A stretch of 4,748 nucleotides of DNA from a virus (Duplodnaviria; Heunggongvirae; Uroviricota; Caudoviricetes): the IMG/VR virus record IMGVR_UViG_2660238446_000005, positions 1 through 4,748 of that record; one strand, 5' to 3'. This document shows positions 33 through 4,748 of this stretch, piece by piece. The position numbers and the translations under genes are program-made. The notes beneath the pieces are model-generated. The model was not told where the DNA came from and did not search any database. It saw nothing but the letters and a program-made list of their open reading frames with translations. Numbering within the stretch: the first letter of the stretch is position 1; each line of letters begins with the position of its first letter.

Positions 33-1160
33 ATGGGTAAAGGCAGCAGTAAGGGGCATACCCCGCGCGAAGCGAAGGACAACCTGAAATCCACGCAGTT
101 GCTGAGTGTGATTGATGCCATCAGCGAAGGGCCGGTTGACGGTCCGGTGGATGGATTAAAAAGCGTGCTGCTGAACGGTACGCCGGTCCTGGACAGCGAG
201 GGGAAGACAAACTTTTCCGGTGTTACGGTGGTGTTCCGTGCAGGTGAGCAGGAGCAGACACCGCCGGAGGGTTTTGAATCCTCCGGCTCCGAGACGGTGC
301 TGGGTACGGAAGTGAAATATGACACGCCGATCACCCGGACCATCACGTCGGCAAACATTGACCGTCTGCGCTTTACCTTCGGTGTGCAGGCACTGGTGGA
401 AACCACCTCAAAGGGTGACCGGAATCCGTCGGAAGTCCGCCTGCTGGTTCAGATACAGCGTAACGGTGGCTGGGTGACGGAAAAAGACATCACCATTAAG
501 GGCAAAACCACCTCGCAGTATCTGGCCTCGGTGGTGGTGGATAACCTGCCGCCGCGCCCGTTTAATATCCGGATGCGCAGGATGACACCGGACAGCACCA
601 CAGACCAGCTGCAGAACAAAACGCTCTGGTCGTCATACACCGAAATCATCGATGTGAAACAGTGCTACCCGAACACGGCGCTGGTCGGCGTGCAGGTGGA
701 TTCAGAGCAGTTCGGTAACCAGCAGGTGAGTCGCAATTATCATCTTCGCGGGCGCATTCTGCAGGTGCCGTCGAACTATAACCCGCAGACGCGGCAATAC
801 AGCGGTATCTGGGACGGAACGTTTAAGCCAGCATACAGCAACAACATGGCCTGGTGTCTGTGGGACATGCTCACTCATCCGCGCTACGGCATGGGGAAAC
901 GTCTTGGTGCGGCAGATGTGGATAAATGGGCGCTGTATGTCATCGGCCAGTACTGCGACCAGTCAGTGACGGACGGATTTGGCGGCACGGAGCCGCGCAT
1001 CACCTGTAACTCTTACCTGACCACACAGCGTAAGGCGTGGGATGTTCTCAGTGATTTCTGCTCGGCGATGCGCTGTATGTCATCGGCCAGTACTGTGACC
1101 AGTCGGTGCCGGACGGCTTTGGCAGCACGGAGCCGCGCATCACCTGTAATGCCTGGCTGA
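33..1160 (+). CDS. J: J N-terminal ORF fragment (375 aa); last 27 residues are out-of-frame read-through of the duplicated segment
   Basis: ORF in frame 0; J-like sequence up to ...[10 protein letters not shown] at 1070, then [26 protein letters not shown] and stop. This is the same locus as the pseudogene call, listed separately in case the two pieces are annotated as separate CDS. Confidence 0.5.
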
Positions 1161-1210
1161 CCACACAGCGCAAGGCGTGGGATGTGCTCAGTGATTTCTG
1201 CTCGGCGATG
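931..1210 (+). repeat. Imperfect direct tandem duplication, 2 x 140 bp, internal to J
   Basis: Unit 1 (931..1070) and unit 2 (1071..1210) align without gaps with 12 mismatches (128/140 identical). The 9-mer cgctgtatg begins each unit and recurs at 1211. 140 is not a multiple of 3. Confidence 0.9.
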
Positions 1211-3652
1211 CGCTGTATGCCGGTATGGAACGGACAGATGCTGACGTTCGTGCAGGACCGACCGTCGGATAAGGTGTGGACCTATAACCGCAGTAATGTG
1301 GTGATGCCGGATGATGGTGCGCCGTTCCGCTACAGCTTCAGCGCCCTGAAGGACCGCCATAATGCCGTTGAGGTGAACTGGATTGACCCGGATAACGGCT
1401 GGGAGACGGCGACAGAGCTTGTGGAGGATACGCAGGCCATTGCCCGTTACGGTCGTAATGTCACGAAGATGGATGCCTTTGGCTGTACCAGCCGGGGGCA
1501 GGCACACCGCGCCGGGCTGTGGCTGATTAAAACGGAACTGCTGGAAACGCAGACCGTGGACTTCAGCGTGGGCGCAGAAGGGCTTCGCCATGTACCGGGT
1601 GATGTCATTGAAATCTGCGATGATGATTATGCCGGTATCAGCACCGGTGGTCGCGTACTGGCGGTGAACAGCCAGACCCGGACGCTGACGCTCGACCGTG
1701 AAATCACGCTGCCATCCTCCGGCACCACGCTGATAAGCCTGGTTGACGGGCAGGGGAATCCGGTCAGCGTGGAGGTCCAGTCCGTCACCGACGGCGTGAA
1801 GGTAAAAGTGAGCCGTGTTCCTGACGGTGTTGCTGAATACAGCGTGTGGGGGCTGAAGCTGCCGACGCTGCACCAGCGATTGTTCCGCTGCGTGAGTATC
1901 CGTGAGAACGACGACGGCACGTATGCCATCACCGCCGTGCAGCATGTGCCGGAAAAAGAGGCCATCGTGGATAACGGGGCACACTTTGACGGTGACCGGC
2001 GCGGCACGGTGAATGGTGTCACGCCGCCAGCGGTGCAGCACCTGACCGCCGAAGTCACCGCAGACAGTGGGGAATATCAGGTGCTGGCGCGATGGGACAC
2101 GCCGAAGGTGGTGAAGGGTGTGAGCTTCCTGCTTCGCCTGACCGTGGCAGCGGACGACGGCAGTGAGCGGCTGGTCAGCACAGCCAGGACGACGGAAACC
2201 ACATACCGCTTCAGGCAGCTGGCGCTGGGGAATTACAGTCTGACAGTCCGGGCGGTAAATGCCCGGGGGCAGCAGGGCGATCCGGCGTCGGTATCGTTCC
2301 GGATTGCGGCACCGGCAGCGCCTGTCACTATTGAACTGATACCGGGGTATTTTCAGATAACGGCGGTCCCGAAACTGGCTGTATATGACCCGACGGTGCA
2401 GTTTGAGTTCTGGTTTTCGGAAAAGCGGATTGCGGATATCAGGCAGGTTGAAACCACAGCACGCTATCTTGGCACGGCGCTGTACTGGATAGCCGCCAGT
2501 ATCAATATCAGGCCGGGCCATGATTATTATTTTTACGTTCGCAGTGTGAACACCGTTGGCAAATCGGCATTTGTGGAGGCCATCGGTCGGGCGAGCGATG
2601 ATGCAGAAGGTTATCTGAATTTTTATAAAGGGTTGATCAATAAAACGCATCTCGGCAAGGAGTTGTGGACGCAGATTGATAACGGTCAGCTTGCGCCGGA
2701 CCTGACTGAAATCAGGACGTCCATTACGAATGTCAGCAATGAAATCACGCAAACCGTCAATAAAAAACTGGAAAATCAGAGTGCTGCAATCCAGCAGATA
2801 CAGAAAGTTCAGGTTGATACAAATAATAACCTGAACAGCATGTGGGCTGTGAAGCTGCAACAGATGAAGGACGGACGCCTTTATATTGCGGGTATCGGTG
2901 CCGGTATTGAGAATACGCCAGCAGGAATGCAGAGTCAGGTGCTGCTGGCGGCAGACAGGATTGCGATGATTAATCCTGCGAATGGCAACACAAAGCCGAT
3001 GTTTGTTGGTCAGGGCGATCAGATATTCATGAACGACGTGTTCCTGAAATGCCTGACGGCTCCGACCATTACCAGCGGCGGTAATCCTCCGGCATTTTCC
3101 CTGACACCTGGCGGACGGCTGACGGCGAAAAATGCCGATATCAGCGGTAACGTGAACGCGAACTCCGGGACGCTCAACAACGTCACGATTAATAAGAACT
3201 GTCGGGTTCTGGGAAAATTGTCCGCGAACCAGATTGAAGGCGATCTCGTTAAAACAGTGGGCAAACCTTTCCCACGGGACTCCCGGGCACCGGAGAGGTG
3301 GCCATCAGGGACCATTACCGTCAGGGTTTATGACGATCAGCCGTTTGATCGGCAAATTGTTATTCCCGCGGTGGCGTTTCGCGGTGCTAAACATGAGCGG
3401 AAGAATAACAATATTTATTCGTCATGCCGCCTGATAGTGAAGAAAAACGGTGCTGAAATTTATAACCGAACGACCCTGGATAATACGCTGATATATACGG
3501 GTGTTATTGATATGCCTGCCGGTCACGGTCACATGACGCTGGAGTTTTCTGTATCGGCATGGCTGGTAAATGGCTGGTATCCCACAGCAAGTATCAGCGA
3601 TTTGCTGGTTGTGGTGATGAAGAAAGCCACTGCAGGCATCACGATTAGCTGA
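1106..3652 (+). CDS. J: J C-terminal ORF fragment (848 aa as called from GTG 1106); contains the putative receptor-binding C-terminal domain
   Basis: Frame 2 ORF. J-like sequence begins inside the second repeat unit (..[44 protein letters not shown]..). No Shine-Dalgarno sequence precedes GTG 1106, so independent translation is doubtful. Stop TGA at 3650-3652. Confidence 0.5.
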
Positions 3653-3670
3653 ATTTTATAACCCAGATAC

Positions 3671-3696
3671 GGGCACCAGAAATGGTGCCTTTTTTA
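3671..3696 (+). terminator. Rho-independent terminator downstream of J
   Basis: Perfect 7-bp stem ggcacca (3672-3678) / tggtgcc (3683-3689) with GNRA-type loop gaaa, followed by T-run tttttt (3690-3695). It lies 19 nt after the J stop. Confidence 0.7.
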
Positions 3697-3719
3697 TTGC
3701 AGAAAAGCGAGAGGTAATT

Positions 3720-4319
3720 ATGCGTAAAGTTTGTGCAGCCATTTTGTCCGCAGCCATTTGTCTGGCCGTATCCGGTGCGCCTGCATGGGCGTCTGAACAT
3801 CAGTCCACGCTGAGCGCCGGGTATCTTCAGACCCATACTGATATGCCAGGCAGCGATGACCTGAAGGGCATTAACGTGAAATACCGTTATGAGTTTACGG
3901 ATACGCTGGGGCTGATTACGTCATTCAGTTATGCCAACGCTGAAGATGAGCAAAAAACGCATTACAGCGATACCCGCTGGCATGAGGATTCCGTGCGTAA
4001 CCGCTGGTTCAGCGTGATGGCGGGGCCGTCTGTGCGCGTGAATGAATGGTTCAGCGCGTATGCGATGGCGGGTGTGGCTTACAGCCGTGTGTCGACTTTC
4101 TCCGGGGATTATCTTCGCGTAACTGACAACAAGGGGAAAACGCACGATGTGCTGACCGGAAGTGATGGCGGTCGCCACAGCAACACGTCTCTGGCGTGGG
4201 GAGCTGGCGTGCAGTTTAACCCGACCGAATCCGTGGCCATTGACCTTGCTTATGAAGGTTCCGGCAGTGGTGACTGGCGCACTGACGGTTTCATCGTGGG
4301 TGTCGGTTATAAATTCTGA
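3720..4319 (+). CDS. lom: Lom, Ail/Lom/OmpX-family outer-membrane beta-barrel protein (prophage lysogenic-conversion gene), 199 aa
   Basis: ATG at 3720 with GAGG at 3711-3714. N-terminal signal peptide MRKVCAAILSAAICLAVSGAPAWA with an AWA-SE cleavage-type site. Near-identical over long stretches to lambda Lom as I recall it (e.g. WHEDSVRNRWFSVMAGPSVRVNEWFSAYAMAGVAYSRV). C-terminus ends ...GVGYKF with a terminal Phe typical of outer-membrane beta-barrels. Same position as in lambda, between J and stf. Confidence 0.9.
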   Translation: MRKVCAAILSAAICLAVSGAPAWASEHQSTLSAGYLQTHTDMPGSDDLKGINVKYRYEFTDTLGLITSFSYANAEDEQKTHYSDTRWHEDSVRNRWFSVMAGPSVRVNEWFSAYAMAGVAYSRVSTFSGDYLRVTDNKGKTHDVLTGSDGGRHSNTSLAWGAGVQFNPTESVAIDLAYEGSGSGDWRTDGFIVGVGYKF

Positions 4320-4345
4320 TTAGCCAGGTAACACAGTGTTATGAC

Positions 4346-4372
4346 AGCCCGCCGGTTCAGGCGGGCTTTTTT
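4346..4372 (+). terminator. Rho-independent terminator downstream of lom
   Basis: GC-rich stem agcccgcc (4346-4353) / ggcgggct (4360-4367), loop ggttca, then T-run 4367-4372. It starts 27 nt after the lom stop. Confidence 0.75.
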
Positions 4373-4383
4373 GTGGGGTGAAT

Positions 4384-4710
4384 ATGGCAGTAAAGATTTC
4401 AGGTGTACTGAAAGATGGGGCGGGTAAACCTGTCGTAAATTGTGCGATTGAACTGCGGGCCAGAAGAACCAGTCCGACCGTTGTGGCACACGTTGTTGCC
4501 ACTTGCGTGACGGACAATAACGGTGCTTATGTGATTGAGGCTGAGCCGGGGTATTACGAGGTTGCGCTTCACTGTAACGGCTGGCAGCCAACCCGTGTCG
4601 GGGATATTGATGTGGCACCGACTGATGCACCGGGGACACTGAACGCGTTTCTGAATGCACCAAAGGATGGTGATTTACGTCCGGAGGTGATGAAGTGTCA
4701 GCGCCAGTGA
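4384..4710 (+). CDS. Side tail fiber (Stf)-like N-terminal domain protein, 108 aa; apparently truncated relative to lambda Stf
   Basis: ATG at 4384 preceded by gggg at 4375-4378 (an in-frame GTG at 4378 is an alternative start). The N-terminus MAVKISGVLKDGAGKPVVNCAIELRARR... resembles the lambda Stf N-terminus (MAVKISGVLKDG...), and similarity continues to about ...DGDLRPEV. TGA at 4708-4710 follows; the other two frames also hit stops within about 30 nt. Confidence 0.6.
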   Translation: MAVKISGVLKDGAGKPVVNCAIELRARRTSPTVVAHVVATCVTDNNGAYVIEAEPGYYEVALHCNGWQPTRVGDIDVAPTDAPGTLNAFLNAPKDGDLRPEVMKCQRQ

Positions 4711-4748
4711 TATAAGACGGTAATTCGCCATTTGGATTGTCCGCTCCA

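Follow-up and report, generated by a model that had tools for sequence, protein, structure and literature searches.

A 140-bp doublet in the J gene of a Shigella sonnei prophage contig is most probably a false duplication introduced during draft assembly

The question raised by this locus is whether a gene that appears broken in a database record is also broken in the cell. In the window, by which we mean the whole stretch of 4,748 bp that was analysed, the phage gene J contains two adjacent and closely similar units, and a sequence-only reading had taken these for a real tandem duplication that puts J out of frame and so keeps the phage from making infectious particles. The doublet as such is present in the sequence far beyond chance, as two repeat searches agree. 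Here, the repeat search of the window placed units of 140 nt each at 930–1069 and 1070–1209 with 91% identity, and Tandem Repeats Finder returned a period of 140 with 2.1 copies, 92% matches, 0 indels, and a score of 496. Between unit 1 and unit 2, 12 of the 140 positions differ. Since the 10-nt GCGCTGTATG is common to 930, 1070, and 1210, a phase of 931/1071 for the units is equivalent to the phase of 930/1070 used below. The features of the window to which the text refers are as follows.

33..1160, plus strand: ORF 1 of the split J, 375 aa, with Pfam FNIII-A_GpJ at aa 86–207
930..1069, plus strand: unit 1, the resident (canonical) S. sonnei allele of J by comparison with closed genomes
1070..1209, plus strand: unit 2, allele of a second J-like copy (J'), an E. 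coli/lambda-type haplotype with 12 differences from unit 1
1070..1079, plus strand: the join, a 10-nt GCGCTGTATG with which the left piece ends and the right piece begins
1106..3652, plus strand: ORF 2 of the split J, the remainder of the gene in a shifted frame, 848 aa from a GTG start
1211..3652, plus strand: the rest of J, a mosaic of canonical and paralog-type bases
3720..4319, plus strand: intact lom (Ail/Lom outer-membrane protein), whose exact protein occurs in some 1,874 blocks of the collection, closed S. sonnei genomes among them
4384..4710, plus strand: N-terminal fragment of stf, 108 aa, matching phage_tail_N at profile positions 1–104 of 134
4696..4748, plus strand: left end of a multicopy IS21-family element, with 100% identity to IS21-family istA regions at up to 43 places per genome

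Because 140 is no multiple of 3, the doublet brings with it a frameshift and two J ORFs, and on this point the sequence-only reading was borne out: the J frame is shifted by +2, such that the frame opened at 33 ends at 1160 and the rest of the gene is open in another frame (1106..3652). ORF 1 encodes the native J residues 1–346 (to nt 1070), followed by 29 out-of-frame residues that run through unit 2 to the stop. ORF 2, which in the record is called from the ATG at 1238 and is thereby 804 aa long, carries the Pfam domains Phage-tail_3, Ig_J, Ig_J_second, Phage_Tail_Tip, and Ig_GpJ_C. It was likewise correctly foreseen that loss of either unit would restore the gene, as both deletions, when computed, gave a single ORF of 1,159 codons, the two versions differing at 4 residues. 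An exact look-up of both single-copy 1,159-aa reconstructions found neither protein on record, which fits a mosaic consensus.

The alignment to lambda gpJ that had been proposed as a check confirmed the identity of the gene, with single-copy J matching 8iyk_J at residues 1–836 against 1–836 (2,135 bits, E = 0). Moreover, the J domain series is complete across both ORFs (FNIII-A_GpJ, Phage-tail_3, Ig_J, Ig_J_second, Phage_Tail_Tip, and Ig_GpJ_C), with all domains above the curated Pfam cut-offs, and the gene order is as expected, with M-L-K-I upstream in the closed relatives (our loci L002, L004–L013, and L022) and lom and stf downstream, as also in the window. The single-unit J thus resembles lambda gpJ (PDB ID: 8iyk and related entries) in its colinearity over residues 1–836, in its full Pfam series, in having I upstream, and in having lom and stf downstream, but differs from it in having a C-terminus (aa 867–1159) of another type and in lying inside an IS-truncated prophage remnant. 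This C-terminal receptor-binding part (residues 867–1159, window 2631–3652) is not lambda-type, and its best solved relative is 9wca ‘A8 gpJ 713’; judged from its sequence, it points to a receptor other than LamB. Downstream, lom differs from the closed S. sonnei genomes at seven nucleotides, all of them synonymous, and hence the Lom protein is identical to theirs; the seven differences may reflect either paralog mixing or a true second allele. Homology to intact stf genes stops at 4695, with stf being cut by an insertion sequence after about 105 codons, and the right end of the contig lies 53 nt into the IS21-family element that interrupts it. Terminator-like hairpins with T tracts are seen after J (3671–3700) and after lom (4346–4377), these being 2 found against 1.1 expected in shuffles.

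As regards provenance, an exact look-up of the 375-aa product revealed that the IMG/VR window is the whole of contig CXFO01000210.1 (4,748 bp) from the Shigella sonnei draft assembly GCA_001252515.1, in which the proteins of the split J are on record as CST52815.1 and CST52823.1, both named “host specificity protein”. The series CXFO01000001–CXFO01000367 appears as S. sonnei, run ERR042792, lane 6350_1#18, in the supplementary table of Page et al. (2016; PMC5320598), and by this listing it is a draft built from short reads and then both scaffolded and gap-closed. For the listed assemblies, the pipeline at the Sanger ran from Velvet to scaffolding by SSPACE and then to GapFiller v1.11 with 120 iterations (Page et al., 2016; PMC5320598). 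Here, contigs joined by the scaffolder receive an N gap, which GapFiller then attempts to close (PMC5320598), and both SSPACE and GapFiller are greedy, with false joins being possible (Page et al., 2016; PMC5320598). The most fragmented assemblies in the table of that paper are those of S. sonnei, with a mean of 405 contigs (PMC5320598). In GapFiller, the edges of a gap are cut back by 10 nt and then grown base by base (PMC3446322), and the gap is closed when the extensions overlap by at least 10 nt (the default) and the length is no more than 50 nt off the estimate (PMC3446322).

The two units of the doublet are different alleles. Compared with closed S. sonnei genomes, unit 1 shows 0 differences to FORC11 (L022) and 1 to L004, while unit 2 shows 11–12. 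The unit 1 allele is present in single copy in every S. sonnei J fragment examined and is rare in E. coli, where ten EIEC-like records come closest, at 98.3%. The unit 2 allele is the common E. coli type, as 73 records reach 99% identity or above, and the J of E. coli RM10042 carries 11 of the 12 bases that distinguish unit 2. A protein search with the unit 2 peptide returned short fragments only, among them P0069, a partial S. sonnei protein from the 262-nt contig LYEO01000265.1 (L040). This contig, which belongs to an independent S. sonnei draft, has all 12 of the unit 2 bases (TGCCATGCGGCG) in single copy and is identical to window 1075–1233. The units accordingly correspond to two variants that exist separately, unit 1 as the resident J and unit 2 as L040 (12/12 sites). 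Since L040 carries the unit 2 allele in single copy, S. sonnei has at least one further J-like copy, J', besides the resident J, and we infer that J' is present in the CXFO isolate itself. The unit 2 allele is absent from the 20-kb stretches that were fetched around the closed S. sonnei loci. Positions 1–19 of LYEO01000265.1 (AGAGGTGTATAATAGACAG), which precede the J' homology, do not read as J in frame, and represent either a contig-end error or a second J copy that is truly truncated on its 5' side, near reference position (ref) 935.

The relationship of the window to these two alleles changes over short distances. Differences between J and J' are dense at ref 956–1046, with near identity on both sides. 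Beyond the identity tract, LYEO01000265.1 and the window disagree at ref 1094, 1099, 1123, and 1140, with canonical J in the window at all four, and yet the window shows the base of J' at ref 1172. The J' tract in the window is therefore only 91–163 nt long, with the window being canonical again at ref 1094–1140. In all, about 30 scattered differences separate the window from closed S. sonnei, and these are shared with two sibling drafts (L023 and L024) in varying combinations. Such scattered J and J' bases have the look of a consensus drawn through collapsed paralogs. A simple two-parent chimera with an E. coli J allele identical to one side of the join was considered and rejected, as the best matches reach 97.0% (right) and 98.4% (left); neither side has an exact counterpart among E. 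coli alleles, and the mosaic of the contig is finer than two parents would give. The contigs of other S. sonnei drafts break inside J where the window departs from the canonical gene, and 57 tiny contigs (209–344 nt) from E. coli and Shigella drafts cover the J segment of the doublet, a pattern typical of an unresolved paralog bubble.

At the join itself, the details are those of the gap-closing software. In single-copy J, GCGCTGTATG occurs only at ref 930 and 1070, with no extension possible on either side, and the stretch between its two occurrences is exactly where J and J' differ most densely. The overlap at the join is exactly 10 nt, which is the default minimum of GapFiller (PMC3446322). 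Moreover, the join was closed without N, and so carries no flag in the record. A software signature, in the form of either an N or a minimum overlap, is thus found here, and the joins in the sibling drafts likewise show N or a 10-nt overlap. The junction can be recognized by a 30-mer such as TGCTCGGCGATGCGCTGTATGTCATCGGCC, the normal contexts being GATAAATGGGCGCTGTATGTCATCGGCCAG and CTCGGCGATGCGCTGTATGCCGGTATGGAA. Of the marks that a genuine microhomology duplication would leave, the short direct repeat at both borders is present (GCGCTGTATG at 930, 1070, and 1210). However, the copies are neither identical nor set apart by random later mutations only, given that the 12 differences in 140 make up a pre-existing foreign haplotype, and there is no recurrence in independent assemblies or related isolates.

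We also looked at the locus in finished genomes. An intact 1,159-aa J beside an identical Lom was found at all eleven closed S. sonnei loci fetched, the locus being single-copy in finished genomes of the same organism. In closed S. sonnei, the element comprises a Q antiterminator, IS elements, M-L-K-I-J-lom, and an IS-truncated stf; absent are the lysis, terminase, head, tail-tube, and tape-measure genes. The prophage is an IS-riddled dead remnant, and the predicted failure to make infectious particles becomes moot, as in the closed S. sonnei genomes the element is already without head, terminase, and lysis genes. One closed S. sonnei genome (L008; CP019689.1) has the whole M-L-K-I-J-lom module twice in tandem with an IS between the copies, and thus a true change in the copy number of the module does occur in S. 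sonnei. As for the doublet, an exact look-up of the 375-aa and 804-aa split products found no record outside CXFO01000210.1, and the junction is in no other S. sonnei record. A junction probe against 5,426 complete E. coli genomes gave no further S. sonnei-like junction, with E. coli 2014C-3011 being matched. The junction pattern GCGATGCGCTGTATGYCATYG gave 8 matches in species-representative genomes, 9 in JGI metagenomes, and 0 in IMG/VR; the 8 and the 9 were dismissed as true junctions, these being chance matches of 21–31 nt in unrelated organisms and none of them in a J gene.

Three sibling contigs from the same pipeline (L023, L024, and L025) cover the same locus, and while their end points are identical to those of the window, their internal structures differ. 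Mapped on the closed genome, they read as follows.

L024 (CXFS01000212.1): ref 1–2169, then a single N (at 2170), then ref 1617–4607
L023 (CXFP01000191.1): five mutually overlapping pieces, with N at 1448, 2063, 3471, and 5627–5633
L025 (CXCD01000247.1): a 423-bp ‘tandem duplication’ in J (1051–1902, 89% identity), free of N, and a further join with N

By these means the J region swells to some 7.1 kb in L023 and 4.0 kb in L024, and one outcome is an annotated ‘J’ of 1,919 aa. The sibling structures are overlapping paralog-derived pieces set in tandem by the scaffolder. In fact, the N-free join of L025 rests on exactly 10 nt (TGTTGGTCAG), where the upstream context of the paralog was taken from a matching E. 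coli allele as a stand-in, and its 423-bp doublet is a probable second gap-closure artefact of the same kind as in the window.

With a probability of roughly 0.9, we read the doublet as an artefact of assembly, in which the scaffolding and gap closing of a short-read draft produced a false duplication. The claim of a real duplication that disables the phage is not upheld, since the units are the different alleles of two J copies and the join bears the signature of gap closing in a short-read draft. The resident J and J', which differ densely at ref 956–1046, are nearly identical to both sides of it, such that short reads could not separate them, and for this reason the assembler would have yielded pieces overlapping in terms of the true gene. 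The first would have carried the resident allele through to about ref 1080, and the other, starting from about ref 930, the J' allele. The scaffolder would then have set both pieces in series, with the gap closer joining the ends by the 10 nt they share (GCGCTGTATG). As GCGCTGTATG lies naturally at both borders of the 140-bp stretch, the stretch would come to appear in both allelic versions, one after the other. The origin of the contig, the alleles of the units, the 10-nt overlap, the artefacts in the siblings, and the intact J of the closed genomes are each seen directly, while the exact software step is what we infer from them. Two points weigh against an artefact. A duplication with the same borders is found in the complete genome of E. 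coli 2014C-3011, and an event of this type is therefore biologically possible at the site. Further, L040 has 19 non-J bases immediately before GTATG, and if the J' of the isolate had a 5' end like this, extending J' specifically to the left would fail to give GCGCT.

The E. coli case merits a closer comparison. In 2014C-3011 (NZ_CP027591.1, 4,596,914–4,600,533; L001 4887–5166), J is likewise duplicated in tandem over 140 bp, at the borders seen in the window. These borders carry a 12-nt direct repeat (GCGCTGTATGCC), the frame is shifted by +2, and the copies are 100% identical, as would be expected of genuine slippage and in contrast to the window; the duplication may indeed be a genuine slippage event. 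The J allele is only about 76% identical to that of the window, and PGAP calls two pseudogene pieces of J there, inside a prophage with heavy deletions. The likeness between this pseudogene and the window thus extends to the 140-bp unit, the borders, the direct repeats, the +2 frameshift, and the degraded prophage, but not to the identity of the copies (91% in the window), the complete state of the genome, or the J allele, which is divergent. A count of E. coli genomes with the 2014C-3011 junction is uninformative, as the normal J halves, which lie 140 bp apart, merge into one place. We found no literature on strain 2014C-3011.

Given this precedent in a finished genome, a real chimeric duplication has to be weighed, in which unequal exchange or a template switch between the resident J and J' at the 10-nt microhomology would have set a J' version of the 140 bp after the resident one and turned the J of this isolate into a true pseudogene. 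Although the 10-nt direct repeat at the unit borders suits such an event, as does the placement of J in a decaying prophage remnant under no selection, we consider it improbable. The sequence would have had to switch again, returning to the resident allele no more than 48 nt beyond unit 2 (ref 1046–1094), and the event would be unique to one isolate, with the closed S. sonnei genomes fetched all having an intact J. Moreover, it leaves unexplained both the other J overlaps in the three sibling drafts, which are mostly marked by N, and the coincidence of the overlap with a software threshold. Very improbable is an older slippage that made identical copies, one of which then changed through mutation or gene conversion, with another copy of J as donor in the latter case. 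Here, the 12 differences are not random and reproduce an existing haplotype (12/12 in L040 and 11/12 in RM10042), and a divergence of 8.6% beside identical flanks is not credible as mutation. An old event should also recur in related isolates, and no other S. sonnei record has the doublet, even if the direct repeat at the borders and the identical copies of 2014C-3011 would speak for slippage as a starting point.

That the arrangement is functional, with the split J being expressed by programmed recoding or as two polypeptides, we hold to be of nearly negligible probability. Two long ORFs do exist, and nothing further favours it, whereas the relatives all encode a single 1,159-aa J, 47 residues would occur twice because of the overlap region, and the element is without genes needed for a virion. 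Across the junction searches (E. coli genomes, representative genomes, metagenomes, and IMG/VR) the arrangement was conserved nowhere, and programmed frameshifting was rejected on this account.

The artefact reading has a known parallel in the ‘heterotype’ false duplications that occur at scaffold joins and closed gaps in eukaryotic assemblies (Ko et al., 2022; PMC9516828). As in these, diverged versions stand side by side on one scaffold with variant-specific k-mers in each copy, a gap or gap filling lies between the copies, and the gene structure is falsely changed (PMC9516828). Two differences are apparent. The versions here are paralogous prophage genes in a haploid bacterium rather than the two haplotypes of a diploid, and the join of the window is N-free on a natural 10-nt repeat, with no flag in the record. 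Public drafts made by scaffolding and gap closing can hence hide N-free false tandem duplications in multi-copy prophage genes, and these come to be annotated as split or pseudogenised genes, as with CST52815.1 and CST52823.1. The warning signs are different alleles in the two copies, an overlap at the software minimum, other joins within that gene in sibling assemblies, and an intact gene in closed genomes.

Were the doublet real after all, the 10-12-nt GCGCTGTATG(CC) around the 140-bp stretch of lambdoid J would be a recurrent hot spot of microhomology duplication, an unlikely prospect in our estimation. The two uses of such a hot spot would be within a single allele in 2014C-3011 and between two copies of J in the S. 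sonnei isolate, and duplication of this kind would be one route of decay for the tail genes of resident prophages. On the preferred reading of an assembly artefact, the biological weight of the doublet is small, as it lies in a dead prophage remnant, and the break in J is very probably not in the DNA of the cell.
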